Origin: Blasia pusilla | Lineage: Eukaryota | DNA: 64,000 nucleotides | Assembly: GCA_050084515.1 (NCBI GenBank) | Contig: CM114271.1 | Span: 9,982,001 to 10,046,000 of the forward strand | Reading direction: 5' to 3' | Part shown: positions 38,901 to 64,000 of the stretch, piece by piece | Layout: each line of letters begins with the position of its first letter | How positions within the stretch are numbered: the stretch's first letter is position 1 | Program-made: the position numbers and the translations under genes | The notes under the pieces: generated by a model | What the model was told of the DNA's origin: nothing | Databases searched by the model: none | The model's input: the letters and a program-made list of their open reading frames with translations, nothing else

Positions 38901-40272
38901 TTACTAAAATTGTGTGAAAACATTGACTGACAGAACTTTGATGAAAGGACAAGAGATAGTAAGAGATTAAGGACTGTCTTGGAAGAGTCAGAATTGTGTA
39001 AAAGTAGGAAAATATGAAAAAAGAAGCTAGAATAAGAGGTGCACGTACTTCGCAAGGAAGACCAAAGTGGGAATAGTGGTAAAGAATATCAACGAAGACT
39101 GGAAAAATCTTCTTTGTAAAAGAAGATAGAAGGTGATTTTTTTGCAAAGATTGGGTACAAAGAATGAAGATCGAAGACCCAAGAGCAAAGACTGAGAACT
39201 CTAAGAAGGAAGAGGAAGAAGAAGAGGAATTAAAGAGTCTTCACAAAGCGGAAAGGTGTATAGGAAATAGAAAGAATGTTTTTGAAGAAAGCGGATTGAA
39301 AGGAAATCTCAAGGAGGACTCTTTACGGTGACAGAAGGATAAGAGTCTTCACAAATATAGGATTGCAAAGAGTGCGAAGACTATGAAGACCGAACCGTCA
39401 CGGCGGTTTCGGAAGCCAAAAATGGAGCGGCGCAACTGTTCACGAGAAAGCAGAAATGAATTGCTAGGGAAAACAACCGCCTTAGGAAGATGGAGGGTTG
39501 GAGAATTTGAACCGAGGAGGTTAGGATAAGCAGTTAGAAATCTAGAGTGGGATAGGAAGATCAATCAGGGATTGTAAGAGACTATTTAAAGAGAAAATTA
39601 GAAGAAGAGGGATGATTCCCTTGTGTCTTGAATTCCCCAGTACTGTTGGTTAGAATTATTTCCTTACATCTTGAGTTTCCCAGTAGTCTTAGTGAGTTGT
39701 GTAAGGAGTTCTGTGGGAAGGATCCAAGCCGAAGAGTTTTGTACTTTTTGAAGCTTGCAATACTTTCTAGTTCTTTTCACTCTTTGATGCAATAGAAGTG
39801 TCTTCTCTCATGCTTTTTGATGTGCGGAATTGAGTGTAAAACCTTATTGGGCTGCAATACAGATGAGAGATGAGTCTTGTGATTTTGGAATTCTAGAAGA
39901 TAATCAAGAAGAGCGTAGGAAAGTTGTTAGACAGTGAGTAACCTGCCATGACACATTCAGTTTTGAAAGTGGGGTGAGCCGCCATTCTTGAGGTCTCTTT
40001 GAGGTCTTTGTTGGAGCTTTTTCATTCCATATTTGAAAGAGTCTTTGTCTGCACTTGAGAGAATCATTTTCCAATAGGGAAGAAAATCCTTTTATTCTTT
40101 TGAACTTGTAAAGACATTGTACTGGTAGTTAGTCAGTAAAGATAGTGAAGAAGGACTTATTCTTGATATTTCTTATAAAACCTCTCTTTACTCAGGAAAC
40201 AATAGTCTCTTGGGAACGAACTTAGTATTTTGCGATAGAAATAGTAATTTTTTCCTTGAGTTTTACATTACA
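35950..40272 (+). mobile_element. 3' part of a family-B Gypsy-like element: degenerate internal region, PPT-like tract and LTR (38794-40272)
   Basis: The LTR tgtagtgcccac...ttacattaca is highly similar to 49779-51258 and is preceded by the purine-rich 'aaggatgatggag'. The internal region has palindromic repeat clusters and antisense ORFs. The left boundary is approximate. Confidence 0.7.
38299..38643. repeat. Array of ~7 palindromic units with a ~52-53-bp period; 4 more units at 36858-37184
   Basis: Consensus TGCAACCCGTCGGA-W-TCCGACGGGTTGCA, with similar linkers (cttagacaaaattctagt). Confidence 0.85.
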
Positions 40273-40935
40273 TAAGGAAGTAGGTAAGGAAATTTTGGCA
40301 CGGCTGCCGAGAATAACAAGATCTCCCAAGCAAGGAGAGGTAGCGAGAGAATGGGGTATGGGAGTAGAACAAGTCTCCGGACCCCCACTTGGTGTAAGAC
40401 GGGTACTGCTGGCGGAGGATCATCATCTGCAGAGTGTACCGTTGCAATAAGCAGCTCATCCAAAGAGTCTTCATTCCCATGGAGGTGGAGCCTTGCGTGC
40501 TGGGTGAGGCGTCTCAGATCTTTGGAAGTTTTGGATGGATCGGGAAAGAAGCATTAAAACGCGTTAGCAAAGAGCCGAGCAATGAAGCAGAGAAAGAGAA
40601 GAGCGATGAGCCTAGAGATTGCTAGGGACACCTGCAAAGAATCGTTCCCATCTTCATCTGAAGCCTCTTGGGCGAAGATGAGAAAGGAGGAAGTCGCCTA
40701 TGCCTCCTGGTTCACCATCAAAGACATATCCAGAAGAGGAGTGGGATCAGTCCGACCACAACAACTTGGACAAAGAGGACAATAATAGTACCACAGGGGA
40801 CTTGCCTTCCCCATCAGATGGCGGAAGTCCTCCCAGTAGCAGAGACATTGAAGCACCGATGACACAACCACGCAAGTCGCTGCTGAGGTACCCACCTTTG
40901 CTGGAAGCAAGAGGGATGATGCTGATCACTTTATT

Positions 40936-42060
40936 TTGGAGTTTACCCATGTAGAAAAAGAGAATGGAGAAGGATCGGAGGAAGATCTTCTTAGAGTCTT
41001 TCCTCGACTCTTAAAGAAGTGTGCCAATCAGTGGTATGAGGGAATAGAAGCGGAACACCTAGAAACTTGGGAAGCCTTGCTTAAGGCATTCCTTTCTGAG
41101 TTTCGAGACCTGGAATTTGACAATCGTATACTTACAAAGCTTTGTGATCTCAAGAGGAGGAAGAAAGAGACGTTAAGAGAGTACACTCAAAGTTTTTGCA
41201 GCTTGGTTGGCAAGCTGGAGCACACCACTATGTCACAATTGGTGGATTGGTATGTGTCTGGTCTATCCAAGGAGATGGATTGCTACTGTCGTAGAGGGAA
41301 AAGACACTCCTTAGCAATGGTCATTGCCTCTGCAGAAGCCTACGAGGCCTCGGAGAGGTCTAGGAGGACGCGGAAGAAGAGGCATCAAAGGAAGCGGATG
41401 AGCTCTTCGTTAGAAGAGTCTTTGGATACCTCTCTAGGAAGTACCAGCGAAAACTCAGAGTCTGAGGACGACTCCAAGGGAAAAAGCAAGAAGAAAGCAA
41501 GATGCCCAAAATGGTCTTCATCCACAGGGAAAGAGCGTAAGGACAAGAGCGTGAAGACGGAGAGCCAAAAATCTGTGAGTCCCGGCCGCAAGACTAAGAA
41601 GGACGGGGAGAAGTCCGTCATCAGCGAATTGACGAAGCAGATGGCCAATCTAAAGGTACACCTAGCAGCCCACAAGGATCTTAGAAGAAGTCCGGGACTT
41701 ATGCAGCCTAACATATGGTGGAGTTCTTGTGGGACTCAGGGGCATACACTGCCAGAGTGCCCACTTCAACGAGATTTACGTTGGATCCAAGAAGACCCAT
41801 CTATGGAGGAGGGATGGTATCAAGTAGATCCGTGGGAGGGATGCTACACACTCTAGGCAGTTCCTGGAGCCAGTACTCCTTGTAGCTGGATTCCCAGATA
41901 TGTACCGCCCGAGTATGGAGAGCAAAGGATTTTACGTCAGATCATGGGACGCGTAGCACTCACCCCACCAATCAAGAGAAATTGCTGCTATAATTGTGGG
42001 GTAGCCAATCATTGGGCAAAAAACTATCCAAACCCAAAGAGACGAGTGGGGCTGAATCCC
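40936..42060 (+). mobile_element. Gypsy retrotransposon gag remnant of a different family
   Basis: 'FPRLLKKCANQWYEGI...TWEALLKAFLSEF', 'KETLREYTQSF', and zinc knuckles 'SCGTQGHTLPEC' and 'CYNCGVANHWAKNYP'. Confidence 0.8.
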
Positions 42061-42064
42061 CTCT

Positions 42065-43800
42065 GTGGCCCATCATCTGCCTCGCGACCACTAGTGAAAT
42101 ATACCTTGGAGCTCAATACACCCTCCAGACATCCATCTCTACTGAGTACAAAGATTGGAACTCCATGTAGTCATCCATCGAAGGACCCTCTAAATGATGG
42201 AACAAATCCTTCCACACCATGAAAGGGTTGAACCGCGTAGGGGCTCGGATCTCCTTGAAGTCGCACCATGTGTCGAACTCTTAGATGAAATCATGAAGAT
42301 CTATGGTGCCTACCGCACCTGAGAAACAACGCATGCCCCGATAGCCCATGTCGTCCATCTCTCCCCACGTGACATTGCCTCCATTTGCGATATTGTCACC
42401 AGACCTGTTGTCTAGTGATGTGTGATACCCACAATTTTGTACTCTTGAAGAATATATCTTTTTATTCAACGAAGACTCTTGTATATGATGATTTTGATTA
42501 TGATTATTTATTATTATGAATAAGAATGAGTGAATCACGAAGCTCTTGAGACAAGGCAGAGAGATGGAAGATCAAGGATTTGCCTTAGAGGAGAGGAAAA
42601 CACAATAACGAAGTCTTAAGACTCAAAACGAAGTTTAACGAAGCTTCACGAAGATGTACGAAGCTCTGTCTTTGAAGTGCTTCGCTACATAACAAAGCAT
42701 CAGAAGAAAAGAAGAAAGAAGTACTTCGCTCTTGCACGAAGCACGAAGCACCGGAAGTAAGAACGAAGCATGGAGTACTTCGTCCTCATGAAGTCCAGCG
42801 AAGCGAAGCTAGGAAGGACTGTGATTTCAAGCGACGCATAGTTAGAACAGTTAGACTAGGAAAAGGCGCAACCCTTTGTCTCAAATTGGTAGTTAGGACA
42901 GTTTTGTAATGCGGATTCACAGGGATCGTAGGAAAAGCTAAGAGAACCGTAGATCTAGGTAGTTAGAAACAATGAAGAGACACTAGCTTCATCAAGAACG
43001 TTTTGAATCTTTCAATCACTTCCACTCCAACGAATATTTAAGAAGTAAAGCAGAAGCCATAATCATCATTCTCTTACGAAGTCCTTATGTTGTAGGAATG
43101 GTCCGAGCAAGGGAGTAGTACCCTCTCGAGCTTGTATACACTTTGAAGCTTTCTCATTCTTGATGGAGTAATAAAGCAATCATTCATTCATTCTGATGTG
43201 CGATGCTTATGTCTGAGTATTCTTTTTGGGTCTGTAGAGTGAAGAGTGAACCAGGCGAACCTTTCTCATCAATGAAATAATCAACATGAGTTGTAGGAAA
43301 TCTGTTTGACAGAGAGAAGCCTGCCGAGACGGATTGAGTTCCGAAAGTATGAGAAGCCAGCTTTCTCATACTTTCGGAAAGTATGAGAAAGCTGGCTTTC
43401 TCATACTTTCCGAGGTTTCTTGGTGAGGTTTCTTGATGTCGAGAGGAAAATCTACCTGAACATGCTGTCAATTCCACTAGAGAGAATCGAGAAAAGATCC
43501 TTTGGTACTAAGAAAGATCAGAAGATATTGATAAGACATTGAATATAACTCACACACATTTAAATATAACTATTACAAGAGAATTGTAATTCCGAACTCT
43601 CTTTTCATGAAAAAATGATCCTCTTGGGGATCGAACTTATTTAAATGACTATAAAATAGAAACACTTGTACATTACATGATGACAATCTAGCCATGGATG
43701 GAAGGCAAGGTAGCTCCTCACTTCACTTCGTGTCACACCACTACTAATGCTCGCACTACCCCGTTCTTCGGCATCTTGGAATAACGCCGTGGTGACAACC
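42065..43800 (-). mobile_element. DNMT-Gypsy family 5'/gag fragment (copy 6), split by solo LTR A2
   Basis: 'MDDMGYRGMRCFSGAVGTIDLHDFI' matches the gag start at 57219. The sequence continues across the LTR and matches 57100-57200. Confidence 0.75.
42421..43677 (+). mobile_element. Solo LTR, family A (copy A2)
   Basis: tgtgataccc...gtacattaca with TSD TGATG on both sides. Confidence 0.9.
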
Positions 43801-45769: not shown

Positions 45770-48700
45770 TTACAACATGGAGGAACTAACCAGCCGACTT
45801 GAATATCTAGTGTGTATAGGTATCGAGGCTCCGCAAGCTTGTAACAGAATTGGACCTATCCATGAGCTGAACATGTCTTTGAGTGCAGTTTTGACTTCTC
45901 CTGAACCATGTTCACAACTGATAAGCCCTGCAAGCATAGGAAAAAATCGGATGCGGTATCTCTCAAAGGATGAGTCCTTCAGGGCACTTACAGCCTGAAG
46001 TGTGGCAACTACAACAGGTTCTCCAGCCATGAGGTCCTGTCTTCTGGCTAAACCAAGAGGAACCACCCACTGAGGGGAATGACGCTTCTCATTGAAAGAT
46101 GCTATAGTTGATGTAGGGGGTGTTGTGGAAGTATGCACATACAGTCTCAGAACCTCCTTGCAAAGGTGGACCAAGTGGGTCTCTACCTCCACATCCTTGG
46201 CAAGCATTGGCTTGCTAACAGTGAGGCATTGCAACATGGTTAGATATGCATGATATGAATCTCTCTCCATATGTAACAATGGAGAGTCTGGCATCTGGGT
46301 AGCTATTCAAAGTTGTTGGAATCTCATCTATAAATTGTGGTCTCCATTGACATCATGTGCATGTCTTATAATCTTGTGAAGCATGTCCAAAAGTAGCATC
46401 ATGTGCGTGGCTCATAGCTGGGTTTCATGCATGTTGTACATCTCCGTTATGGCTCGTCACTAGCAAAGAAGTTAGATCATGAACCCTGGAAATCTAATGA
46501 TAATCAATCGTGTGCTCTTTCCTCCACCTCTAGGTGAAGCTCATGGATGAGAACCAATCCAGATAAAACTAAGCTCGTCAAGAAAAGGAGGAAAAGAATG
46601 TAAATCTCTCTACAAAATATAAAGAGAAATTTGGCGGATGGGCCCATCCTACACCAACATTCACAAACCTGCGCCAGCAGCAATTGAACTGGTATACAAC
46701 ATCTCATATCAGATATCAACATCTGTCATCAATGTGCTTGCCTGATCTCTAGTTCTACTAAGGCGGAAACATCATCTGCTTTCTGTTTGTGACTGTAAGA
46801 TAAGCCCTCTTCTGGCAGATGTGCAGCTTGAATCTCCTCTCCGCAATCCACGAGCTTTGGCATATCTGGCAAACTATGAGATGCTACATCCTTCAAACTT
46901 TCCAGCACTTCTTTCTATTTATCATATGAGAACACGCTCTCGGCATTAGTCATCAGCCGTACAAAGGCAACAACACCTATTGCAGCCAAACTCTGATGAG
47001 GCCGCTTGATAAACATGTCAGCAAGGATAAAATTCTGCCCAGCAAGGGGTTGACCACTAGATAGAATTTGACAAAAAGGTCCACCACAAGCTGCAAAGCC
47101 AATATTCATGTTTCAAACAATCATGCATCCATCTCCAGCTTAGCCTCCTCTTTCTCATGACTACCTTTGATATGGGCAGCCGGCTCAATGGCTCGTCAAA
47201 CATAATCAAAGATTGGAAACAAAAAAAATTCTAACATCTTTTCCCACAATCCCAGGGTAAAAAAGTTTCCATGATATTTTAGTGTATCAAATAGGACTTC
47301 CAAGACACTTTTTTGAATGTTTGGATGAGGATCGAATGTCAATTCGGACAATCTTGAACATTGAAGACATCATATTGTATGGTCACGATGGAAGTTTAAC
47401 TGTGACAAATGCACATGAACATGTATACCTTACAATTTCAAATTCAAACTCTAAAAATTAGTCAGATAGATAAGCCAAGTGGAGACATGATTCTATATTG
47501 AATGGCTACAACTCACCTGCAGGAGAGGGAACTAGAAATAAAGGTGGTCCTCTCTGTTTGTAAAAGTAGATAACTGAGGCTCTTCTACATCCCCAATTCT
47601 TGGTGATGTGTGATACACACAATTTTGCAATTTTGAAGATAAACACATTTTTGTATTCAACCTAAGTATAGATGTTTTCAGGAATGAAGCCTCTTTGAAG
47701 TAAAAGGCTTTCTTGAATATTATTTTTTACGTATTGGAAGAATGAGGAGTATTGGAATAGATTATGAAGCTCCTAGGATAAGGCACAGAGATGGAAAGTC
47801 AAGGATTTTCCTTGGAGGAGCGAGAAACTAGCTAATGAAGTCGGAAGACCAAGAGCAAAGCTTGGAAAAGGCAACGAAGCCCGAATAAAGAACATGTTAA
47901 TGAAGTACTTCGCTCTTCAACGAAACTGGAAGACGAGATACAAAGTACTTAGAGAAAAGACAAAGACTAAGGCACTTTGCACATGAATGAAGAGCTTCGT
48001 CTTGGAAAGAAGAAGAAGAGGTCCCGACTTCGCATTGAAGGGAAGATTGTCCAAGCTTCCAAGCGGTACACCGCTAGAGTAGTTAGGCTAGGAGGAGGAA
48101 TGCCTTTTCAGAGCAGATAGGAAGTAAGAACAGTTACTACCTGCGGATTCCTATGAATCACACAAAAAGATAAGAGAATCGTAGATCAAAGTAGTTAAAA
48201 GATCTTAGAAGATGTCTATCTAGCAAGAAACACTTCAGATCTTTAGTACCGATGCCGTTTGGAAGGATATTTAAGGATCATCAACGTAGTTATCAGCATC
48301 ATTTTCTTACAATGTCCTTATGCTGTAGGAATGGTCCGAGCGGGACAGTAGTACCCTCTCATGCTTGTATACACTTTGAAGCTTTCTTATTCTTGATGGA
48401 ATAGCACCAACCTCATTTCTTCATTCTGATGTGCGGAGCATATGTCTGAGAATTCTTATTGGGTCTGCAGAGTGAGAAATGATCCGGAGAGAAGTTTACA
48501 CTAAAATAGTAATCGATTGTGAGATGTAGGAAATCTGTTTGACAAAGAGAAGCCTGCCGCGACGGATTCAATTTCGAAAGTAGGAAGAAGCCATGAGGCA
48601 ATTGAGATCTCTAGGAGGTCCTGGTGTGTGAGGAAGCATATGCCCGAGAGTTTGTTCTATTCCACTTGAGAGAACATAAGAAAGAAAATATTGGTACTTG

Positions 48701-49169: not shown

Positions 49170-52100
49170 GCTCTTTATAGCCACCAAGCCCAAATAGGTT
49201 GACGCATGCCATCCTCCCACCAACTCCTCATCACTCTCTCCATGCCAACAAGCTCCAGTTCATCTTGCTGATTCAACCATGGGTTACGGCTCAAACCATC
49301 TGCATCCTGGTTGAACGTCCCATGTCTATGAACCACATGGAAATCATAGAGGTTGGTGAGGAGACGACAGATGGCCGAGATATTCATGAGGATGGAGTAG
49401 TCTTTGAGTACTTACGTACTGGAAACGTTGCGAGCGCAGTGGGTGCTAGAGAGCGGGATTAGATCCTACAGTGAGTTAGACGGTTCCGGTGGGAGGGGAC
49501 ACATGTGTTGCGAGTTTAGGAGGATGGTAGAGTATGTGTAGTGCCTCATCCTTCACAGAGAGCACGTTTGGTGCATCATGCCCACGAGGAGTTGGGTCAT
49601 TTTGAAATGAATTGGACGTACAAGTTGCTCCATATATAGTATTGGTGGCGAGGCATACACACTGATGTTCAACAATTTGTTGCTAGGTGCATGGTGTGTG
49701 ACTGGGTGTGGGCATCGTTCAATGGTCTGATTCCACATTTGCATCCACTTCCGATCAAAGGTTTAGGGTATGGATGGATGAAGTGCCCACGTTTTTGAAA
49801 TATTGACAGAAAGAGCATTTTTTGTACAAAAGTCTTCCTTGAGTGAAGACTAAAGACTCAATAGTTTACCGCAATTGTATGAAATCAATGACTCACAGAA
49901 CTCTGATGAGAGGACAAGAGATACGAAGGGATTAAGGACTGTCTTGGAAGAGTGAGAATTGTGTAAAAGTAGGAAAAGACGAGAAAAGAAACTAGAATAA
50001 GAGGTGCGGGTACTTTGCAAGGAAGATTGTAGTAGGAATAGTGGTGAAGACTGTCAACGAAGACTAGAAAAAGCTTCTTTGTAAAAGAAGACTGAAGGTG
50101 GTCTTTGTGCAAAGACTAAGTACAAAGAGAAAAGACGGAAGACCCAAGAGCAAATACTGAGAACTCTAAGAAGGAAGAGGAATAAGAAGAGGAATTAAAG
50201 AGTCTTCACAAAGGGGAAAGGTGTATAAAAAATAGGAAATAGAAAAAATGTTTTTTAAGAAAGCGGATTGAAAGGAAATCACAAGGAGGACTCTTCGCGG
50301 CAAGAGAAAGATAAGAGTCTTCACAAAGATATGAGCATGAAGATAGGACAGAAAAGAGCGCGAAGACTATGAAGAATGAACCGTCATGGGATTTCGGAAG
50401 CCGAAAATGGAGCGACGCAACGGTTTAGGAGGAAGCGGAAATGAATTGCCAAGGCAACCAACCAACTTAGGAAGGTAAAGGGTTGGAGAATTTGAACTTA
50501 GGAGGATAGGATTATCAGTTAGAAATCTAGAGTGGAATAGGAAAATCAATAAGGAATTGTAAAAGACTATTTAAAGAGCAAATTAGAAGAAGAAGGGATC
50601 ATTCCCTTGTGTCTTGAATTCTCCGCTACTGTGGGTGAAAGTCATTTCCTTATATCTGGAGTTTCCTAGCAGTCTTGGTGGGTTGTGTAAGGAGTTTTGT
50701 GGTGATGATTTAAGCCAAAGAGCCTTACACTTTCTGAAGCTTGCAATACTTTCTAGTTCTTTCCACTCTTTGATGCACAAGAAAAGTCTTCTCTCATGCT
50801 TCCTGATGTGCGGAGTTGGGTGTAAAATATTATTGGGTTGCAATAGGAATAAGATTTGAGTCTTGTAATTTTGAAATTCCATAAGATAATCAAGAAGAGC
50901 ATAGGAAAGTTGTTAGACAGTGAGTAACCTGCCACAATAGATTTAGTTCTAAAAGTAGGATGAGCCGCCATTCTTGAGATCTCTTTGAGGTCTTCGTTGG
51001 AACTTTGTTATCCTAGATTCGAAAGAGTCTTTGTCTGCACTTGAGAAGAGTATTTTCCAAGAGGGAAGAAAATCCTTTTATTCTTCTGTACTTGTAAAGA
51101 CAGTGTAGTTGTAGTCAGTCAGTAAAGTTAATAAAGAAGGAGTTGTTATTGTTATTTCTTATAAAACCTCTCTTTACTCAGGAAACGGTGATCTCTTGGT
51201 AACAAACTTAATACTTTTTGATTAAAGGAGTATCTTTTTCCTTGAGTTGTACATTACAATGGAGTTTTAATTTTGCACGACGTTTATCTTTGACGAAGCA
51301 CCATAGTCGTTATGTGTTGGTGATGCATGGTCTAACACTTCTTGAAGTGGGTAGATTTGGTTGTATTGCACGACAAAGCAAGTGAGGGAGTAGTGTTTGC
51401 CTTCCTAGATCGAGTGTTGAGTCATTACGGCGCACCAACTAAAGCGTTGAAACACCTGGATACAGAGTTTTGTGGGGAGGTTTGGTCCTTGTGTGATCAG
51501 GCACTAATCGACCAGCGCACCACTTTGCGAGATCATACTAAGGAGGATCGACTAGCGGAGAGGGTTGTGCAGACATTGAAGAGAGATTTTTGTGAGTATG
51601 GTTTGCAGAGAGGTCACCTAGGAGATTGGGAACTCCAGTTGCCATGGTTGGTGATGGGATGCAGTTTCAACATGCAGATATCCTTAGGGTCTTTCTCACC
51701 GTACTTGCTACTTTATGGCTGAGAGCCGGATTTACCTGCGGCCATTTGTCGAGACGTTGGTGAGGTGGTAAACCTTGATGAACCTCCTGTATGGATGCGA
51801 GCATGTTTTCAGAGGCCTGAGTTGGGTAAGAAAGTGATGCCCATGGCGTTTGAGAACTTGGCGATTGCGCAACATGGGGATACGTTGAGGTATGCAATTA
51901 TTCGGGGAGGTGGTTATCGACCAACTATCCAAAGGTTTCATCAAGGAGACTATGTCTACTTGAAGCATATGACACCCACAACGTTGGATGTGACTACAAG
52001 GCGCACTATCTTGAGGATGCGTGAGATTTTGCCATCTGGTGCTCTCTTATTAGAGGGACGTGATGGTATGGTTTGGAAGGACCATGTGCGTCACTGTGCG

Positions 52101-52612
52101 CCATGTCACCTCCCTAACATTGATGGTACAATTGATCCAAGCTTAGTTCTTGCTGGCTTGCAATGTATGTTGTGTGGTTCTATCCGTGGTACAACCACTA
52201 TGCTAATCTGTGATAGGTGTTCGAGAGGATGGCATATGGCATGTCTGGCGCCACCTCTCACTAGGGTTCCTCGAGGATGGTGGATTTGCCCCTGATGTAC
52301 ATAGAGTAGGTAGTTATAGATTTTGACTTGTGTCTATGACATGGATGACAAGAAGGTGACTAACGATAAGGCCACATGAGCACCCAACCTTTTTTCTCTT
52401 AGCATCCGAGAGATGTATGTCATGGTAGGTAGGGATAGATGGTTATCTAGAGTTAGAGGCACCTAACCACCAACTAGGGAGGCAATTTGAGATATTTTGG
52501 TACTTCTCCTCTTGTTTTTTGGATGCCATGAGGTGGCATGGGATCGTGCGTGTTTGTATGTATATTCGGTGACAGCGATATATGTTGTGTAGCGATGTTT
52601 ATGCGCACGACA
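49170..52612 (+). mobile_element. Gypsy pol 3' part: RNase H end (locally inverted), integrase with C-terminal PHD finger, PPT and short terminal repeat (probable DNMT-Gypsy copy 4)
   Basis: HHCC finger 'HHAHEELGH...YWW..DVQQFVARCMVC'. Core 'VLSHYGAP...DTEFCGE...LAERVVQTLK' and 'FSPYLLLYG'. C4HC3 PHD at 52164-52298. Purine tract 'tagggaggc' at ~52476. Confidence 0.8.
49779..51258 (+). mobile_element. Solo LTR, family B, inserted in the integrase
   Basis: tgaagtgcccac...gtacattaca with TSD ATGGA on both sides. Similar to 38794-40272. Confidence 0.9.
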
Positions 52613-53301
52613 ACTATTGTTGATTTAAGGATAAATCAACAAGATCTAGTATAGCACCTTTGGAGATACAAGAGGACAGCTTGCGGAGGTCGAGGATGAC
52701 CGGTTGAGGGCACGGGTAACCTGAGAGAGCAGGTTTCCCCTTCATTTGGGCTCATTTGGAGCCATATTGAGGAACTTTCAATTTTGGATAAATTATTATT
52801 TATGGTATAGTTGACTTTCTACTTTGGGAAGTGGCCCTTGGGAAGGAGATATTTGATTGATTTAATTAGAGATATTTTGGTACTTCTCGTGTCGTTGTTT
52901 GGATGCCATGAGTTAGCATGGGATTGTGCGTGTTTGTATGTATGTTCGGTGACAACGACGTATGTTGTGTAGCGATGTGTATGCGCATAACAACTTGCAT
53001 TATGAATATTCTTTTCTTATCTCCATTACTTATTGTGAGACTTGAGTTATCTTATAACTTGTCTTCATCACATGCACTCTACTCTTATGTATTTTGCAAG
53101 AAGGCAATATTTCTGCTACACATGTCGTATATGATCCACCAATGCCTTCTACAATTATCCCGCTATGGAAGAAGAAAAGGTGCAGAGTTTCCAAGTTTGC
53201 GCAAAGTCACAAGTTAGCGTTACCTATTCTCACGGGAAAAAGTTTTTGACCGTGGGACAGTTCCAACTCACATATACGAGGCTGCAATTGCAAATATTGA
53301 C

Positions 53302-53600
53302 ATGCTCACGTCAAAATACGATGAATCCCAACGCATTGTTGATTTTTTGAATGACCTCGTGTTATCTACGAATGAGGTTTCAGACATTCAAATTGACCAT
53401 TTAAGCGACCTACTTGATAGGTTGAAGGTTGCAAACAAGAACTTTTTGGAATTTTTCGACACTTGTGGCATATGCCTAAAGACCAAACCTGCATTTACAT
53501 TTTTTGTAGAAGTAATGACATATGTATTCAAGGGTTTGAAGAAGTAAAAATTTGCCATATGTTAATGTGCCAACCATGTCAACAGCTATCTCGTTGTTTT
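53302..53600 (+). pseudogene. Degenerate Cys-rich, RING-like coding fragment
   Basis: 'CGICLKTKPAF' followed, after a frameshift, by 'ICHMLMCQPC..SRCF'. Confidence 0.3.
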
Positions 53601-53678
53601 GTTTCAATAATTAGGACCATCTATAGTTTTTGTTTTCAGAATAATGCAAATGACTATTTCCATCCGCCTATGCCCTAT

Positions 53679-54667
53679 TGTGCGCATACACATCACTACA
53701 GAATCCACATCGCTGGTCACATCTACATACCACACAACACCGACCTTCCCCAAGATACGGATAGATCCACATATAAATGAAACATACTCACGCATATACA
53801 TTGGGACCCCAAAACATAATCAAGAGTAGTAAAAACGGCTCACCTAGCCTAAAACTCCACTCCTGAATTTAAATCAGCATATCAAACCACATCCATCCTC
53901 TGCTATGAGGGAATCCGCATGCTAGCACCCTAACTACTACACACCCATACACGTCTATACAAGAGAGGCGCTCTTAAGGCTCAACATGAGAAAGATGGCT
54001 TGGGAAAGCCATATTCCTCACTCTTATACCCTTGGGAAGAGCAAAAAGGCTTCCCCCAAAAAGCGCCCTACAAACGGTAACCTACGTGACAGACAAAAAC
54101 CAAAATAGGGAAATCGCCTTAAACAATTTTCCCGACACAACAGACTTGTCGCCAACCTCATTTGACATCTTGGGACGAAGTTACATCCAAAAAACCCATT
54201 GACTCTCTATGCCTTCGACACAATGGAACTCTACCTATATCAAAATAAGATACGACGACTATTGTGCTCATACACATCGCTACAAAACTCACATTGCTGG
54301 TCAGATCTACACACCACACAACACCGATATTCCCCAACATATGGGTAGATCCACACATAAATGAAACATACTCATGCATATACACTAGGACCCCACAACC
54401 GCCCCCCTAGCTGACAGTTGGGTCCCCCTAACTCCAGAGAGCACACACATATGTCCCCGACATGATCTCCTACCCTATACACATGTAGCACCATCGGTGT
54501 GGTTATCCCTGCAATACTGCCACACTGTAGCAACCCCCGGTGTTGATCCCTCCGAAGAGATCTAACACTCTCGTACCCTGCTCCAAACATAGACACGGCT
54601 CCACACATGCCTCACGATCTTGTCTGCACTCCACGTATCTCAACGCTCGTCCCCAACAATAATGACA
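53679..54667 (-). mobile_element. Internally deleted DNMT-Gypsy derivative (copy 5): DNMT motif I fragment joined to the PPT and duplicated terminal repeats
   Basis: 'EQGTRVLDLFGGINTG' at ~54585-54535, then PPT 'tagggggg(cggt)' and TG-start repeat 54397-54263, repeated at 53813-53679. Confidence 0.7.
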
Positions 54668-57050
54668 ATCCCTAGAAGTGGTGATGGTTTTGTCAAATTT
54701 CTTTTGCAACGTGTACCCTTTTCTTTGCTCATCATAACCAAGAAGAATACATTCTTCTGATTTTACATCTAGTTTTCTCCTTTGAGAAGAAGGAATTAGT
54801 GCAAAAGCTGTACACCCAAAAATTCTAATGTGACTAAGATCTGGAGGCTCTTTGTACCAAACCTCATATGGTGGCTTATCACCCTCCAGAGCCTTTGTTG
54901 GTGATTTGTTGTGCAAGTAGTTTGCTGTCACTATTGCTTCAACCCAATCAACCTTTTCGAGACTTGACTGTTCTAGCATTGCAAGTACAACAGATGTTAA
55001 TGTTCTATTTTTCCTTTCTACTACTCGTTTGCTGTGGAGTGTGAGGGACTAAAAACTGCCTTCTAATCCCATGCTCTTGACAATGTAAATTGAAATCAAT
55101 GGAAGTGTATTCTCCCCCATTATCACATCTTAACATTCTGATTTTTCTTCTTGTCTGATTTTCTACCAAGTTTTTGTACACTAAAAACTTCTGATATACT
55201 TCTGATTTCTGCTTCAAAAGATATATACATATATCTTGACAAATCATCTATAAAAGTCAAGAAATATCTAGCTCCATTGAATGTACATGTGCTCATTGGT
55301 CCACAATTATCAGAATGAACTAAGCCAAGAACATCTTCAACTCTCTTACCACCATCTATTGGAAATTTTTCCCTTACTTGCTTGGACTTGATGCTTGTGG
55401 TACAAAGAGGAAAGTTGTCAAAGTTTACGCCCTTCACCAAATTTTATTTTTGAAGTGCTATGAGTCTCGCTTGGCTGATGTGGCCAAGCCTCTCATGTCA
55501 CAAAACAACATTAGTTGTTGCAGAGAGAGCAGTGGTCTCCTTGCAGGTGGAATCTCTGGTTGATTGCTTAGGTGTTATGGACTCACCTAGCATATGCAAC
55601 TTGTTCTTCAACCTACAATTTGCTATTGTTACCCCAGCTTTGTTGTTCAGGGTACAACGACGATTCTTGATTGTGATCTGTTCTCCTGCTTGATCAAATT
55701 GATCCACTGAGAACAGATTCTTCTTCGGACCAGGGATATACAACACATCTGGGATGACAGTTTGTACTCCATCCAATAGCCTGATGCTTACTGACTCTAT
55801 TCCTTGAATAGGCTGGGTTGTGTCATCTCCCAAATACACCACCTGTTGCTGATCTGTATTACAAGCTTGGAAGGTCGTGAGCCATGTGCTGAGTGGCTCC
55901 GGTGACCACATACCAAGTTGTATCTGGACTATTTGAGGCAGTCAGGGCTGTTACATAGATTTTAGTCCCAACATTATTACTCTGATGTAGCTTCTGCAAT
56001 CTCTTAGGACAATTCTTCAATATGTGTCCAAATTGCTTACAATAGAAACGGCGAATTGATGTGATCGGAAGCTTCTTCCTGTAGCTTCCTCTTCCTTGAT
56101 TGAATCTTTGATTACCACCTATATAGAGTGTTATTGATGACTCAACACTCCCACCCATATTCTTTAGATGAGTTTCTTCTTGCAACAATTGAGGAATGAG
56201 AGTTTTCATGGGCTGGACCCGAATAGAAAAAAAAAAACTTATGTAACTTTGAGGCATGCTTCGCATCAGATCTAAAACCTTATCTTCTTGACTGAGGATA
56301 GCCCCAACAGTTGTCAGTGATCCAGAATGGATATCAAGCGATGAATGTGTTTTAATACACTTTCACCCTCTCTCATCTTGATTGTTGACAACTGATCTTT
56401 TAGATACATTTGTGTTACCTAGTCCTTCTTCTCGAAAAGATCGGTCATTCTTTTCTAGGCATCAACAGACGTCGAGCAGCCACTCAAGAGAGAGAATTGA
56501 TTGTTCTCTAGCGAGTTTGCAATGATAGAGGATACAAGACTATCTTTCTTGATCCATAGAGCTGCTGCAGCAGGTTCTAGGGGTTTTGTTTCTTCTCCCT
56601 CTACCATCTCCATAAGTGCTTCAGATATGAGAACCAATATCATTCTCTGTTTCCACACTTGAAAATAAGTTCCATCAAACTAAGGAATATCTGAAGCTCT
56701 AAGATGAGCCATTACTTGTTGACAAGATTCACGTGGCTTTCCTCTCAATTTCTACGCCCTCAATGGGAGTAAGATTTCAAGCACATGAAAGCAACACCCA
56801 CTTTGGGTGCGTGATTGATATCTCTCGCCAGTCACTCAGATGTCCTTCTATAGAAACACAATGCTTCTTGGACACTCTTCTAAGACAGAACTGATGAGGC
56901 ACTGCTTTTCATGACTGGTCACGGGTCCTCTATGGACTCATCACTGCAGATATTCTTTAAACCTAACTCCTAAGTTATACCACATACCACCTAGTATGTA
57001 GGGAGGATCCTTACTCCTATCCTGCTTAGCAGCTCTGATACCATGTTGAT
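54668..57050 (-). mobile_element. Ty1/Copia retrotransposon remnant (PBS-gag-protease-integrase), truncated at both ends
   Basis: PBS TGGTATCAGAGC (initiator Met tRNA) at 57043-57032. Gag 'WKQRMILVL', knuckle 'FYCKQFGHILKNC', protease-like 'WYVVTGATQHM', and integrase 'LVHSDNCGPM..YFLTFIDD', 'LRCDNGGEY', 'FGCTAFAL..KLD..CILLGYDE'. Confidence 0.9.
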
Positions 57051-57054
57051 CAAG

Positions 57055-59490
57055 CAAGTAGTCCGAACAATAGAAGTGGAGTGACACGGAGTGGATTGAG
57101 ATACCGAGGAGTTACGAGTGAGGAGCTACCTCGACATCCATCCGTGGCTGGATCGTCATCACTAGACACTGGGTCTGGTGACGAGATCGCAGACGGAGGT
57201 AGTATCACTTGGTAGGAGATGGACGATATGGGCCATCGAGGCATGCGTCGTTTCTCGGGTGCAGTGGGCACCATCAACTTAGATGATTTTATCCAGGAGT
57301 TCGACACGTGGTGCGACTTCCAAGAGATACAGACCCCGACATGGTTCAACCCTTTAATGGCATGGAAGGGGTTGTTCCAACACTTGGAGGGTCCTCCGAT
57401 GGATGATTACATGGAGTTTCAATCACTATATTTAGTAAAGATCGATGGCTAGAAGATGTATTGGGCCCTAGGGTATGTGTCCACTAGTGGTTGCGAGGCA
57501 TATAATGGGATTGCGAGGGGAGAGAGACCCACACCATCACCCCGAAGACTAGATGGAGAAGAGGGCAGTGAGACAAGCGATGTGGCAGAGACCTCTATTG
57601 GTAGAGGGCCACCCAGCTTCAGCCCCACAGTGGAGTTCTTCCGACAGTTAGGGAAGAGCTATCTGGGCGTATGCACCAACAAGCTAAAGAGTCTACAGGA
57701 TTTTCAGCGACGATTGGGTGAGAGTCTGAGAGAGGCATTCACGCGCATGAGGAGGCTGATCATTGCTACGTATGGAGTGACTGAGGCGCAGTTAGTCCAA
57801 TATTGGTATGGGGTTCTGGACCGCGAACTACGGAGGAGAGTCGGAGATGCGGTGCTGATTCACACTGCGAAGCCCACATTGAAGGTGGTCTTTGAGTTGT
57901 CTCAGCGTATTGAGCTCAACATGAGTGAGGAGCAGGTAGTGACCGCTGGGTTTTCTCGAGAGTCGACGGGTCCAGGAGCGATGATGACCCCACAGGTGCC
58001 ACTATGAGCTCCAGTACCACAGGAGCGGGCCACTGTGCCCTAAGAGCAGGGCGGGTACCGTTAGCCTATGAGGCAATGACCCGTACCTACATATGTTGCC
58101 CAACAGGGACCAATGTTGTCTTTTTGGATGTGTGGCGGGGCCCATCGACAGAGAGATTGCACACAGCATGGGAGAGGACCACGAGCACCTCTGATTGCTC
58201 AGGATCCACAAAGGATGGCCCCACCACAGCACCAGTGTGACTATTGCCACAGATATGGTCACACTAGGGATAGGTGTTTTGACCTTCGTCGAGAGGCAGG
58301 TCCAGAGGTAGGCCGAGGGCCTAGGGGCGGTCGTCTTGGAGGAGGTCGGGGAGTACTTCCTGGATGTGGTGGTAGAGGACCACCACCAGCCAGAGGAGAT
58401 GGAGCAGGAGCACCAGAGCCGACACTTCTCTCACGCAACAATCAATTGGACCATAGGATTGCTGCCATGACGATGATGCAGCTTAGGAAAGGCACGGACC
58501 TACAAGCAGCTAGTGTGACTCGAGCTTCTACCTCTTACCCTGACCCGGGTGAGGATCTCGCTAGTATGGGGTTTATATGTAGTGCAGCCTAGGTTGAGGC
58601 AGATGTAGTGGTGACTGGGGATGCTGCGAGAGGCACCAAGCCATTGAGAGGTGGAGTTGAGATTGACTCACAAGAGGGGACCGATGGGCGGCAGGCCAGG
58701 GTTCCACAGTTATTCACATTGTCAGAGGCACTTCACACACCATCGATGATGCCTCGACGAAGAGCGGTGCCTATAGCTCACGCAGGTATGTCGACATCAC
58801 AAGGAGTTGGAGTGACAACTCCTATGCTGACTTGAGTGGAGTCAGTGCCGACCATAGTGTTGGAGGTGGCCACCAAAGTGAGTCAGACTCCACTATTTTC
58901 CGCCATAGAGTTGGCGACGTTGGGAGTTGGACCAGCTAAGGTGTTCCGGGTGACACCCACGTTGTGTGAGCGTGGAGAGGTGACTGCTTCTTGTTTAGGG
59001 GTAGTTGACGAGGTGGTGGACTTGCCCTCAGAACCGGTGCTTGGGACGTTTCCCACAGAGTCATGGCATGCGGCGGAGGCGAAGTTGGTAGATATGCCAG
59101 CTCGACTGGCCATAGAGCGAGCAGTGGTGACACACGGAGTAGTGTTACTGGATAACCCAGCTGGAGTATTTTGCTTGGTTAGTCCCACAGGGACGGTATA
59201 CCACGTGCAGCGCGTCTTACTTGATTCGGGAGCGCGGCCCTTGATGTTAGGAAAGGCGGTGTGTTTAGCGTTGGGGTTACCGAAGGCCTACATTGAGCCT
59301 TGTCCCTTCGAGATACAGACCTACATTGGGGGCATGTCACCCATATAGTATATGACTCGACAGGAGATAGTTGTCATAGTCCAGCCAGAACATGCGACGG
59401 ATAGTGCTATGGTGCACACACATGCGATTACGACACCAGTTGATTCCTACGATGTGTTGGTGGGGAGTACAGTGTTATATCCCCTAGGAT
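57055..59490 (+). mobile_element. DNMT-Gypsy family gag-protease remnant (copy 3, best preserved), cut just after the protease
   Basis: Gag with knuckles 'CWMCGGAHRQRDC' (across a frameshift) and 'CDYCHRYGHTRDRC'. Protease 'QRVLLDSGARPLMLG' and 'YDVLVGSTVLYPLG' are colinear with copy 1 upstream of its DNMT. Confidence 0.85.
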
Positions 59491-62400
59491 TCTTATCAAT
59501 ATCTTCGGATCTTTCTTAGTACCAAAGTTTCTTTTCTTAATTCTCTCTAGTGGAGTTGACAGCACGCTCAGGTAGATTTCCTCTCGATATCAAGAAACCT
59601 CACAGAGACCTCAACATGAAAGTTGGCTTCTCCTACTTTCGGAACTCAATCCGTCTCGGCAGGCTACTCTCTGTCAAACAAATTTCCTACAACTCCATAT
59701 TGATTATTCCATTGATGAGAAAGGTTCGCCTGATTCACTCTTCACTCTGCAGACCCAAAAAGAATACTCAGACATAAGCATCGCATATTAGAATGAAGGA
59801 ATGAGTGATTTACTACTCCATCAAGAATGAGAAAGCTTCAAAAGTGTATACAAGCTCGAGAGGGTACTACTCCCTTGCTCGGACAATTCCTACAGCATGA
59901 GGACTTCGTAAGAGAATGATGATAATAGCTACTTTAATGTTTCTTAAATACTCTTTGAAGTAGGAATGTTCCAAAGATTTGAAGCATTTTTTATGAAGCT
60001 TGTGTCTCTTCAACATTTGTAACTACCTAGATCTATGATGCTCTTTTCTTTTCCTAAGATCCATATGAATCCGTAGAACAAAACTGTCTTAACTACTTAT
60101 CTGATACAAAGAGTTGCGCCTTTTCTTGGTGGGTCTTTAGACTTTGTTATTTTATTCTCCTCTCCTCTCAAGCAAATCCTTGATTTTCTATCTCTGTGCC
60201 TTGTTCTTGGAGCTTCGTGATTCACTTCAATCTCACTCATTCTTCTACTACGCAACCATAATATCAAAATCCTAATGTATATACAAGTCTTCTTTGAATA
60301 AAAAGGTGTAATTCTTCAAAAGTACAAAATTGTGGGTATCACATATCCCCTCCCTCAAATGTGAGCCACCCAGGGGAACACTTTATGATGTTTCTTCTTA
60401 TTCCATAAAAGTATCATCTAAACTATCAAACTCAGGTGTAGGCGCAAAACGACCATGAATAGTGGAAGGTTTGTTGATAATGTTGGGGGTGTGATTTTGC
60501 ATTCTCTCTCTCCATTTGTTAACAACGAGTGAACTTCCTAATACTTCGTTTTGGACTAAGACATCGGATGGAGTAAATAGTGGGAGTTCTTCAAGAGTAA
60601 TGGGGAGGTTGGGAACAACTTCCAAGAGAGACTTTGTATGGTTGTCAAATTGACGCTTCCAATGTTTGTTGATGTAGGCGATATCATCGCTCATCTGATG
60701 ATCAAAATTCTTGCCTACTTCGTCAACTAACTCCTTGACATCTTCCGGGTCTAACTGCACTTCGTTGAGGAGCTTCTTTTCTGCCTCCAAGACAGCGATC
60801 CTACCCGTAGCCTTTGACCACTATGCCACTAAGTCTTTGTTTGTTTCTTGATGTTCTTGAAGCAACTTTGAAGACTGAGCATGTTGTGTGGCCAATTTCT
60901 TGAACTCGTGGCTGATACGATACACTTGTTGTCGATATTGTTGAATCAGTTGCGAAGCTTCCTTGACCTGCGAAACTAATTGATCAGCCCCACACTCCAT
61001 GTTAATCGCCAAGCTCTCCCATTGGCGTGCGTTCCGTGCCTCGTACTGACTTTGGACCAAGCCGCTTTGGACCAAGTCGCTTTCGAGTTCAGAGGGTGTT
61101 TCGAAATTGACTCTACCGCGCTTTGGTCTTGGAAATTTGGTGAACTCCTCGGCCTTCCTTGAAGCGGAAGTATGCGGATGTTGCTTTGGGGTTGCTTCGC
61201 ATGGCGGGGTGACTTCGTGGCTTCCACTGGTAACCATTCCGCTCTTTCTTGGTAAGTGGACGGAGTAACTTGTGATCAGTGCAGCGCCTCATTGGCCTTT
61301 AATTCTTGCTTATGAATATACAGATTGATTAAAAAAGGAGACAGGAAGGACTTCGTGCTCGGATGAAGCGCTTCCAGCATTGCGCGTACGTGCCCGTCCA
61401 CAAAAGAAGCGAAGTCGACTCCCGGTGCTTTGGGGTCCAGGTGCTGATTCCAAAGGATATAGCACATCTTGACGAGCGTATTTGTTAGGTAGTAAGAACG
61501 AGTAGGATAAAACAAATTCATCAAATGGTTGCAAAACTGTCCAAACAATGGCGGAGACAACAAAGTAGCCTTGTAGAAATTCCTTCCAAGGCGATCAGAC
61601 ATTACACAACCGAGTGCCAACAAATATTCACGCTTCACCAAAAATTCGGTGTCATACTCATACTCTAGAGCAACCAAGAGCATATAAGTTGTTCGCCAAT
61701 CATTCGGCGTCCATTGTTGTGGCTAAGCTCGATACTGAAGACCCTTTCTTCGAAACTTGGCAATTGACGAACGAAGCTCCCCGAGGAGTTCCTTGGATGT
61801 CAAGGTCCAAATTGCTTGAAAGAAAGTCACCAAAGATCACTCCTCAAGCGCTTCGACCAATTCTGGTGACAGCTTGACCAGGGGCATGGCCGCACTTCGT
61901 AGAATGGGCGTGGAGTCTTCACGAGGCATGTTGGTAGATCAATCTGGATGAACGCCCCGCTTTGGTCTGCTACGCAACTTGGTGATGACTCCATCCATGC
62001 AAATACCCGCCCGATTAAGCAAGGACGCTTATATAGGCCCGACACTATGCGGGTTCTTGACCTTGGCGCCGGGTCTGCAATAGTCAGTTTGGCGCTTCGC
62101 TCTTCTACAAAGCTCAAATACTCTCGCGCTTTGCGCATGTGTGAAGGTCCAATACATCGCGCTTTGCTCTTCTGCAAAGCTTGAATACCCTCACGCTTTG
62201 CTCTTCTGCGAAGCTTTAGGCAGCCGCTCAACCCCCTTCCCTCCGGTTTTAGTCCGGGTAGGGTGGCGGCTCATGATACCGCGGAACATGCATCCCATTA
62301 ACACGAGTGGGAAGTGCTTCGCTCTGTAAGGTCCCCAACTGCAGTGATCCATTATCATATATGGCCAATACTCAGTAGGGTCCCATCAAGTTCAATTTTA

Positions 62401-63105
62401 ATTTCCCGGGGAACTTTATCCGACGGTTATCATACAATAGCACCAGGTTCCCAACGCTTATAGATTACGTCCGGAGATGTCGATCATATCGTTGCTTGCA
62501 TTTGTTTTGCACACATTTGGTCTGGCGTAAAGCCAACGTGCGTGCTCCCTCCAACGCAATTAAGGTCTCATTCCTTCCCTGGAAAACCTCGCCGACCGCC
62601 TCCGTTGTCGTTCCTTCCAACACTCAATAAGTGGGCAAAGCCCATTCAATAGGTGTTAAGGGATGAACGCCATAAGTGAGGAAGAACGGGGTATACTTTG
62701 TAGAAACCTTCTCGGCTGTTCGATATGCCCACACTGCAACAAAGATTTTCATATCCCAATCATAGGAATACGTAACCGTCAATCGATTCAATATCGGGCA
62801 GATCAGGCCGTTATATTTTTCAATCAACCCGTTGGCTTTAGGGTTGTAGGGCATGATCTTCCGATGCTTAATGAGAAAGTGTGACGTTAAAGACTCAATA
62901 GTCTGGTTCATAAAATGGGTGCCTCGATCGCTTACTAATTCCAACGGGCAGCCATACCGGGTGATAATTATTTCATATAAAAATTTGGCCACAGCCTCAC
63001 TATCATCTTTGCGCGTGGCCACCGCCTCCACCATCTTGGTACAATAGTCGGTAGCTATCAAAATATATTTTCGCCTTGTATGGCGGGTAGCGGGGGAAAT
63101 AGGGT
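59491..63105 (-). mobile_element. Family-A Gypsy element 3' half: integrase, extra downstream ORF, PPT and 3' LTR (60343-59491, truncated)
   Basis: Integrase 'IATDYCTKMVEA..ITRYGCPLELVSDRGTHF..PYNPKANG..WAYRT..TPFFLTYG' at 63061-62624. Sense-strand ORF remnants at 62231-60398. PPT 'gagggagggga' sits directly before TGTGATACCC. Confidence 0.85.
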
Positions 63106-64000
63106 TGTCATGACCATACGGATTATGTCATGGAGTATAGTGTGCTAGTAGAGGCCATACCTTATGTAGGGCCGTAGTGTCTAGGTAGAGATGCGGTTTC
63201 ATACATAGGGTTGGGGGTTACTCAGTTGAGGGTGACTTTTCCAGTAGGGCCTGCTCTTAGGTTGGAGGATATAGTATGGAGTGCACTCAAAGAACAGCTA
63301 GTTCTTTGAGTTGAGCCTGTTGCATTGGGAGTTAGCTTTGGTAGTGAGTAGAGCTCTTGGCTATGGTGGCTCCCGTAAGCTTCGACCTGGATTCTCCCAT
63401 CGTGGAGTGGGTTTGGCTCGATTGTATGTGATTCTATACGTGTTTTATGACAGTAGGTCTTTCACAGATTTCACTCAAAGAACTAGAGTAGATTGATGGT
63501 AGCTTCGATTGTGGATCAGTAGGATCCGGCTAGGGCTGATTGTGTATCAGCCGTGGATGTTCGTGGCTTGTGGCCTATATTGGAGGTAGGAATCTGGTGC
63601 GTGATTGATTGGGAAAGAAGCGCCTTTTTGAGAGCTTTCCAGCGCGCTTTAGATCGCCGGATTTTGTGAAGGGAGTTGGAAGTTATCAAGGATTGAAGAA
63701 TCTGGTTCGTGTTCGACGGTTTTCTGATGTGGAGAGCTTGGAGTGCGGAAGCTCTGTTGATGTTCATCCAGAGCGGGTGAGAGGTTCTTGTTGCTACTTG
63801 TATTGTGATCTCAAGCAAGAAATGACATCAAACGGATGGCTCTTGCTCCCATGAGCACTCTCGTGAGCCATGAAGTGGGGAACACTATCTCCCAACCTGC
63901 AACAAACAGCGAACACCAGCAAGCTCCTCCATCGTACCTCTCAAATCCTCATTCTCTCTTTGTAAATCAAGTAGATCTCACATCACATCTCACACCAATC
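63106..64000. mobile_element. LTR-like insertion truncating the integrase, followed by a family-X-like fragment
   Basis: Abrupt switch at tgtcatgacc. 63835-63985 resembles ~32495-32630. Confidence 0.5.

Follow-up and report, generated by a model that had tools for sequence, protein, structure and literature searches.

The 64,000-nucleotide stretch of Blasia pusilla DNA analysed here (contig CM114271.1, positions 9,982,001 to 10,046,000, referred to as the window) carries on its plus strand the 3′ remains of a Ty3/gypsy-type retrotransposon, the integrase of which is extended by a PHD finger. This C4HC3 finger is encoded at 52164-52301 (+), in the same frame as the C-terminal portion of the integrase. 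A Pfam scan returned PF00628 with 39.6 bits (E 5.5e-10, residues 148-192 of a 193-residue translation), well above the curated cut-off of 24 bits and spanning profile positions 1-47 of 47. This profile check, together with the recovery of the quoted peptide from frame 51336-52301, bears out the claim of an earlier note on this DNA that a PHD finger sits at the C-terminus of a retroelement integrase. All eight zinc-ligand codons are present in the order C4-H-C3, from the first Cys codon at 52164-52166 to the last at 52299-52301, which directly follows a TGA at 52296-52298 lying between ligands 7 and 8. The finger had thus been given its correct start, 52164, and an end (52298) that falls 3 nt short of 52301. 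Apart from this TGA and another at 51720-51722, frame 51336-52301 is open. In an alignment of relatives Arg occupies the column of the in-finger TGA in five of the ten sequences reaching it, which fits the proposed origin of this stop from CGA, and in most relatives it also occupies the column of the first TGA. No chromodomain was detected in the Pfam scan of the integrase/PHD reading, where PF00628 was found instead.

The integrase itself is split. Its N-terminal zinc-binding part and the start of the core lie at 49322-49777 (+), as identified by tblastn with residues 533-689 of the second open reading frame (ORF2) of a near-intact related metagenome locus, L018 (45% identity, E 4e-32); the same segment matches residues 593-732 of the related protein P0091 with 51% identity. 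A foreign insert of about 1.5 kb (49778-51323) fills the gap between the two tblastn pieces, and 50986-51258 within it is 84% like 40000-40272, a stretch upstream of the gag of another element. The C-terminal integrase core and the integrase C-terminal domain follow at 51324-52163 (+), including the TGA at 51720-51722, with 56% identity to L018 ORF2 residues 710-1034. Over its 322 residues, the combined integrase-PHD (IN-PHD) reading is 68% identical to protein P0001, which carries PF00665 (rve) and a PHD finger (E 2.5e-152). No Pfam family, rve included, was matched by the 128 codons before the first TGA (51336-51722), because this piece has decayed; the integrase features of the fragment (H2C2 and the rve core) were recognised through homology to P0001 and L018 ORF2 and not by Pfam on the decayed sequence. 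Adjoining position 49322, an inverted RNase H scrap at 49363-49155 (-) marks a rearrangement, and it is the only RNase H left in a plus-strand element that has no gag, protease, DNA methyltransferase (DNMT) or reverse transcriptase (RT). With two in-frame stops, a 1.5-kb interruption and missing upstream domains, the plus-strand copy is a dead 3′ part of a Ty3/gypsy-type retrotransposon and is not functional.

Downstream of the finger, a 3′ untranslated stretch of 182 nt (52302-52483, +) is 71-76% identical to the same stretch in more than 30 related loci, DNMT-positive ones included. Its last 38 nt (52446-52483) form a purine-ended element, termed ‘pre-PPT’ (PPT, polypurine tract) in the earlier note, which is conserved in the 3′ untranslated region of relatives and ends exactly at the start of a repeat, B1. 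Three repeat segments then close the element on the plus strand: B1 (52484-52615), which is 89% identical to 52864-52995; A2 (52616-52863), whose twin A1 forms the 5′ end in complete relatives and which stands between the two B copies as in loci L003, L042, and L054; and B2 (52864-52995), the 3′ end of the element, which terminates in ...GCGCA where the B2 of relatives terminates in ...ACA. A copy of A2, 78% alike, also occurs at 33094-32888 (-). The word TAGCGATGTGTATGCGCA occurs four times with at most one mismatch (52590 and 52970 on the plus strand, 53681 and 54265 on the minus strand), against 0.02 occurrences expected by chance, and four were reached in 0 of 100 shuffles. The B1-A2-B2 layout is found in the window and in 21 of the 51 loci that have at least 800 nt after the PHD finger. 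Of the suggestion that the pre-PPT leads into a long terminal repeat (LTR), the shared word and the repeats were confirmed; the plain LTR was not, and its place is taken by B1-A2-B2 split direct repeats.

The minus strand of the window holds two further pieces of the same kind, both of which involve a DNMT. The smaller one combines a remnant of DNMT motif I, QGTRVLDLFGGINTG, at 54536-54580 (-) with a 3′ end at 53675-54438 (-), made up of a pre-B1 element (54438-54401), B1 (54399-54259), A2 (54258-53816) and B2 (53815-53675), the B copies being 87% alike. About 15 codons of motif I survive, of which 10 of 15 residues match the window's own larger DNMT copy near 22 kb in a blastx search (E 0.002, small search), and blastn matches occur in six metagenome loci (E 3e-4 to 4e-3). 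In the four of these with checkable tblastn coordinates (L001, L040, L041, and L043) the match falls at the first codons of their DNMT. The DNMT fragment reported earlier on this strand is thus real, though tiny. Likewise, the likeness noted between the two 38-nt stretches, at 52446-52483 (+) and 54438-54401 (-), was reproduced, with 29 of 38 positions in agreement, and the 3′ end of this second element aligns with the plus-strand one and has the same repeat layout. The picture of a DNMT that shares this 3′ end holds for the homology of the ends and fails for the adjacency of DNMT and 3′ end; intact relatives have their DNMT upstream of the RT, so the direct contact of motif I with the 3′ end in the minus-strand piece marks it as a remnant with an internal deletion. 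The B2 ends of these two family members face each other tail to tail about 680 bp apart (52995 on the plus strand and 53675 on the minus strand, with 52996-53674 between), which may reflect chance in a transposon-rich region or a shared target preference.

The larger piece, at 20657-23338 (-), is the decayed 5′ half of a family member and comprises protease and DNMT (23338-21335), an in-frame TAG stop (21052-21050) and the start of the RT (21040-20657). By tblastn it matches L018 ORF1 residues 571-1259 (E 2e-74) and ORF2 residues 5-137 (E 3e-30), as well as DNMT residues 3-200 of protein P0099 (E 1e-18).

The complete architecture was read from relatives. A protein search with the window IN-PHD yielded 86 near-length and 21 longer relatives in which the PHD finger is continuous with the integrase, PF00628 being annotated in all 21 longer ones; named sources are Marchantia polymorpha, Calypogeia fissa, and Sphagnum fallax and, more distantly, Pleodorina starrii. 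In all scanned relatives the finger comes immediately after the C-terminal domain of the integrase. Nine of the longer proteins (1033-1171 aa) are annotated with RT, RNase H, integrase, and PHD and without DNMT, and Pfam scans revealed the order RT-RNase H-integrase-PHD in P0091 and DNMT-RT-RNase H-integrase-PHD within a single protein in P0099. DNMT and PHD also share one protein in P0130, P0133, and P0135 by Pfam scan, and both appear among the precomputed database domains of P0134 and P0137. Three Marchantia gene models (P0124, P0126, and P0127) are gag-protease-DNMT proteins. A second order, RT-RNase H-DNMT-integrase-PHD, with the DNMT between RNase H and integrase, was observed in P0130, P0131, P0132, P0133, and P0135, so that the DNMT has either changed its place in PHD-tipped gypsy elements or entered them on two occasions.

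An IN-PHD alignment scan of metagenome contigs found 527 relatives, the best 80 of which were taken as loci for study. The DNMT test was restricted to the 36 loci in which 3100 nt or more precede the integrase, and a DNMT3-like domain lies on the same strand, upstream of the RT, in 35 of them; the sole exception, L006, is 5′-truncated and cut at the start of its RT. The DNMT-positive loci share the order gag-protease-DNMT, stop, RT-RNase H-integrase-PHD. The near-intact L018 has an ORF1 of 1369 aa, then a TAG, then an ORF2 of 1047 aa in the same frame. A gag-like part in ORF1 has two CCHC knuckles; the Pfam scan of this frame further gave a weak match to aspartyl proteases and PF00145 (51 bits, motifs FAGIG, PCQ, and ENV), and neither ADD nor PWWP was among its matches. 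ORF2 encodes RT, RNase H, integrase, and PHD. The order RT-RNase H-integrase is present in L018, P0091, and P0099, of which the window fragment keeps the integrase part only. Pfam scans of L018 and P0099 gave no tyrosine recombinase match and identified rve and Integrase_H2C2 instead. Elements with both DNMT and IN-PHD, which the earlier note had advised looking for at full length, therefore exist, as the near-intact L018 and as the one-protein P0099.

The stop between DNMT and RT lies at a conserved place, in the window (21050-21052, -), in L018 (5083-5085), in L017 (4661-4663) and in 23 further loci. Of 30 loci, 23 have a TAG or TAA with CAACCY behind it, placed 39 nt ahead of the RT match; the sequences are TAG CAATCA in L017, TAG CAGTTA in L018 and TAG CAA CCA in the 22-kb copy of the window. 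CAR-YYA is a read-through signal of plant viruses, and by analogy this context suggests programmed read-through. The conserved stop splits gene calls, which explains, without proving it, why DNMT-less pol proteins and separate gag-protease-DNMT proteins appear among them.

The ends of the element were defined from four loci with a complete A1...B1-A2-B2 arrangement, which represent three independent insertions: L003 (1676-10805), L042 (2705-11908, the same insertion as L057), and L054 (2541-11858). Their 5′ end consists of A1 alone, without B. The complete relatives start with 5′-TGTCATG and end with ACGACA-3′, i.e., they have TG...CA ends, and the three insertions are flanked by 4-bp target duplications (AAGG/AAGG, CATA/CATA, and AACA/AATA). 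The family thus combines split direct repeats of the DIRS/Ngaro type with the hallmarks of DDE integration. Terminal repeats are absent from L018, and L017 has one tandem pair only, probably because these contigs end in repeats. The internal B1|A2 junction is palindromic (..ACGACA GC TGTCATG..) and resembles a circle junction.

A functional reading starts from the types of the two domains. Among 60 listed of the 92 matches of the window PHD to solved structures are the fingers of CHD4, KMT2C/D, KAT6A/B, ATXR5, PHF21A, KDM5A/B, DPF2/3, UHRF1, BAZ2A/B, and AIRE, all of which we take to bind the H3 N-terminus in its unmodified state (K4me0 or R2); the ATXR5 match runs in one stretch over the whole finger (51.9 bits). 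No classic H3K4me3 reader is among these 60. Cage-type readers of H3K4me3 have a Trp two positions before the His ligand, where the window PHD has Gly. For the DNMT, the 29 best of 45 matches to solved structures are DNMT3A, 3B, or 3C. The role of the PHD most likely parallels that of the chromodomain in chromoviruses, namely steering integration: after cleavage of the polyprotein by the protease, the finger would stay on the integrase and could tether the integration complex to nucleosomes with an H3K4-unmethylated tail, so that new copies would land away from active promoters. The DNMT, since it precedes the stop codon, would be produced at a level like that of Gag; it would act separately and methylate the new copy or what surrounds it.

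Alternatively, the PHD might serve the methyltransferase and guide the DNMT3-like domain to H3K4-unmethylated chromatin, either in an uncleaved read-through polyprotein or in trans, in the manner of an ADD domain; the earlier note had this arrangement in mind with its ‘reader plus writer’. The co-occurrence of both domains in 35 of 36 loci, and in single proteins of two different orders, suggests a lasting partnership, and the window finger is nearest in type to solved PHDs that presumably read unmodified H3. Such a division of labour is nevertheless unlikely, as a stop codon, RT, RNase H, and integrase separate the two domains in the bryophyte-type element, the PHD always stands directly behind the integrase C-terminal domain wherever the DNMT sits, and PHD-tipped integrases occur in proteins without a DNMT match, such as P0102, P0105, and P0107. 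On balance, the find is probably the 3′ part of a retrotransposon of the ‘Gypsy-DNMT3’ kind, in which the PHD would serve targeting on the integrase and the DNMT would work apart from it.

Whether the plus-strand fragment belongs to the DNMT-carrying family was examined with a quick maximum-likelihood tree of 74 IN-PHD rows, one from the window, 56 from loci among the 80 and 17 from proteins (24 loci were left off for want of a single long match); support was given as Shimodaira-Hasegawa-like approximate likelihood ratio test (SH-aLRT) values only. The window falls within a 44-row clade (SH-aLRT 99) that holds 18 DNMT-positive loci, and DNMT-positive rows are also found in clades outside it (P0099, L017/L018, and L073). 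Because this position, the protease-DNMT-stop-RT piece in the window, the motif I remnant with the homologous 3′ end attached to it and the shared 3′ stretch all agree, the window IN-PHD fragment very probably belongs to the DNMT-carrying family, as judged by sequence comparison. The earlier note had proposed the same and had named, as findings that would speak against it, IN-PHD elements without DNMT and DNMT elements with another integrase or 3′ end; neither emerged from the 80 loci. A fragment from a sister gypsy lineage with a PHD, in which a DNMT was never present or has been lost and whose nearness to DNMT remnants is a coincidence in a transposon-rich region, would fit the missing upstream half, the absence of a PF00145 annotation from 20 of the 21 longer relatives and the precedent of Gypsy-7a_cRei of Chlamydomonas, a PHD-bearing gypsy element with no DNMT reported in its figure legend (PMC9940879). 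This is quite improbable given that a DNMT is present in 35 of 36 testable relatives, the remaining one being truncated, that DNMT-positive rows bracket the fragment on both sides in the tree, that the stop codon accounts for gene calls without DNMT, and that DNMT-positive loci have the same repeat layout and a matching 3′ untranslated stretch. That the PHD stems from part of a host gene lying by chance beside a transposon, as the annotation of Marchantia gene models of this region alone as mere ‘PHD-type domain’ proteins might suggest, has a negligible probability and is refuted by the conserved fusion: the finger shares the integrase frame with point stops as the only breaks, over 100 relatives, ranging from chlorophytes to bryophytes, keep the junction, and the conserved 3′ stretch and repeats of the family come next.

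Several points weigh against assigning the fragment to a DNMT-bearing family with a PHD-guided integrase. The family link is indirect because the upstream half of the fragment, including any DNMT of its own, is missing; the tree is the product of a quick search, in which the window branch is long (0.4); and PF00145 is annotated in only one of the 21 longer proteins. At least five locus pairs (L042/L057, L040/L041, L046/L047, L060/L061, and L029/L030) look like the same locus sampled twice and the loci probably stem from a few plant genomes among related samples, so that the 35 of 36 is to be read as a family rule and not as 35 independent cases. The PHD finger is broken in 34 of 70 loci, and intact fingers have a median dN/dS of only 0.53, a weak signal derived from 337 non-independent pairs over 45 codons. 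No search returned a Klebsormidium sequence; kinship to KnitGypsy-Dnmt3, the closest system described so far, would follow from shared architecture and not from sequence, and the histone mark read, the cleavage pattern and the activity of the DNMT are predictions from sequence.

KnitGypsy-Dnmt3 is a DNMT3-bearing Gypsy element of Klebsormidium nitens described by de Mendoza et al. 2018 (PMC5890265), the Fig. 4 legend of which notes the repeat structure as that of a DIRS retrotransposon. As described there, it shares with the relatives studied here a Gypsy-type pol, an intronless DNMT3-related methyltransferase inside the element and DIRS-like repeats. It differs in its host, an alga, compared with bryophyte sources here (Marchantia, Calypogeia, Sphagnum, and metagenome contigs), and the conserved stop that separates DNMT from RT in the present relatives is set down as a further difference. 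The PHD finger has 0 occurrences in the text of that paper, a count outside which its figures and PDF supplements may show one, and its survey table includes Physcomitrella and Selaginella and lists no liverwort. The name ‘Gypsy-DNMT3’ of streptophytes is used in a passage of a bioRxiv preprint (10.64898/2026.05.21.726589), and a retrotransposon-embedded DNMT3 is mentioned in a 2025 paper (PMC12344493).

PHD fingers in retrotransposons have been called widespread in passages of several reports (PMC6673714; bioRxiv 10.1101/2021.11.30.470311; PMC8557442). In the green lineage, REM1 of Chlamydomonas (Perez-Alegre et al. 2005) is a PHD-bearing gypsy element according to citations in PMC6673714 and PMC8557442, and the Fig. 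6 legend of PMC9940879 gives a PHD in the gypsy pol of Gypsy-7a_cRei. Both resemble the present family, by description, as green-lineage gypsy elements with a PHD in pol, and differ in that these descriptions report no DNMT; the Gypsy-7a_cRei legend also places the PHD before INT, which may mean another position. The IN-PHD query aligns along its entire length with the volvocine protein P0102 (Pleodorina), at 43% identity. Chromoviruses likewise carry a small histone-reading module at the integrase C-terminus, presumed to tether it to a chromatin state (Gao et al. 2008, as cited in PMC6673714). Their module is a chromodomain, the feature of chromovirus membership that is lacking here, where a zinc-binding PHD is found, and their mark is H3K9 methylation as opposed to, probably, the unmodified H3 tail. 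The ADD domain of DNMT3 is also a Cys-rich H3K4me0 reader associated with a DNMT3-type catalytic domain; it is fused to the methyltransferase, whereas a plain PHD on the integrase module is observed here. DIRS, Ngaro, and PAT elements share the terminal layout A1...B1-A2-B2 and use a tyrosine recombinase, in contrast to the DDE integrase, TG...CA ends and 4-bp target duplications of this family. In the literature searched, no description was found of the family in liverworts or mosses, of the pairing of a DNMT with a PHD-tipped integrase, of the conserved stop or of the target duplications.

The plus-strand copy is a decayed bryophyte member that widens a known family and does not found one, and greater interest attaches to the replication mode of the family and its two-part epigenetic kit than to the dead copy itself. 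We tentatively propose, at somewhat below even chances, that bryophytes may harbour a widespread gypsy lineage, in some species still transcribed, which carries a DNMT3-like writer at the Gag level before a leaky stop and a reader of the unmodified H3 tail on its integrase; its ends (TG-A1...B2-CA) may be rebuilt from the internal palindromic B1|A2 copy as in DIRS/Ngaro, and yet linear DNA would be inserted by a DDE integrase. If true, this replication mode would be one that is not known from integrase-bearing elements. Retrotransposons with a cytosine methyltransferase of their own have so far been documented, in the literature searched, only from dinoflagellates and Klebsormidium; the relatives found here, among them annotated Marchantia, Calypogeia, and Sphagnum gene models, place such elements in land plants, where the DNMT is accompanied by a histone-reading finger on the integrase. 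Transformable bryophytes would offer a testable system for why a transposon carries an enzyme that hosts use for silencing and for whether the PHD steers integration as chromodomains do. For annotation, gene models labelled ‘PHD-type domain’, ‘CCHC-type domain’, or ‘DNA-cytosine methylase’ are explained as transposon pieces.

In three runs labelled with the same species, 59 of 64, 80 of 93, and 99 of 102 RNA reads showed only a partial fit to the window, and no read of these runs lies on 52015-52416. The partly fitting reads come from diverged copies and say nothing firm on expression of the family. They fit only short conserved stretches, at 52985 and 51833-51875. One read set crosses from the terminus of B to a start resembling A (..CGACA GT TGTCACG..), so that diverged family copies appear to be transcribed across the B|A junction.

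Methyltransferases were also met in other arrangements. P0138 is a copia-type polyprotein in which a DNMT of this kind follows gag and precedes the protease (CCHC, DNMT, Pol_BBD, gag_pre-integrase, rve, SH3); in the DNMT, P0138 and L018 share 34% identity. In the window, a Ty1/copia 5′ half at 54665-56679 (-), with gag, a Pol_BBD protease region and an integrase with SH3_retrovirus (78.8 bits), breaks off at the DNMT-motif remnant. A copia-DNMT chimera family at this junction, near 54665, was considered and rejected; the order in P0138 is gag-DNMT-protease-integrase and not integrase-DNMT, so the junction is best read as a deletion scar. The distant subgroup proteins P0100 and P0101 extend past the PHD with a weak Tudor-like match below threshold and an unassigned domain, roughly 200 residues long, whose DPWCGAG resembles motif I of a methyltransferase. 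A 2026 preprint has reported LTR elements with adenine methyltransferases.

The remaining features of the window lie apart from this family. An exon-like frame at 45770-46306 (-) has a match to the BIG2 C-terminal domain (PF20252, 72.7 bits) and probably belongs to a host ARF-GEF gene in the midst of the transposons. A 365-aa frame at 28958-30055 (-), with zf-C17orf113 (46.9 bits) and a weak DUF4371 match, looks like a relative of hAT-type transposases. Further retroelement pieces at 57207-59492 (+), 40852-42222 (+), 9637-10353 (-), and 62624-63127 (-) contain a gag and protease region with 23-33% identity to L018 ORF1, a Retrotrans_gag that has a CCHC knuckle, an RT, and an rve core.

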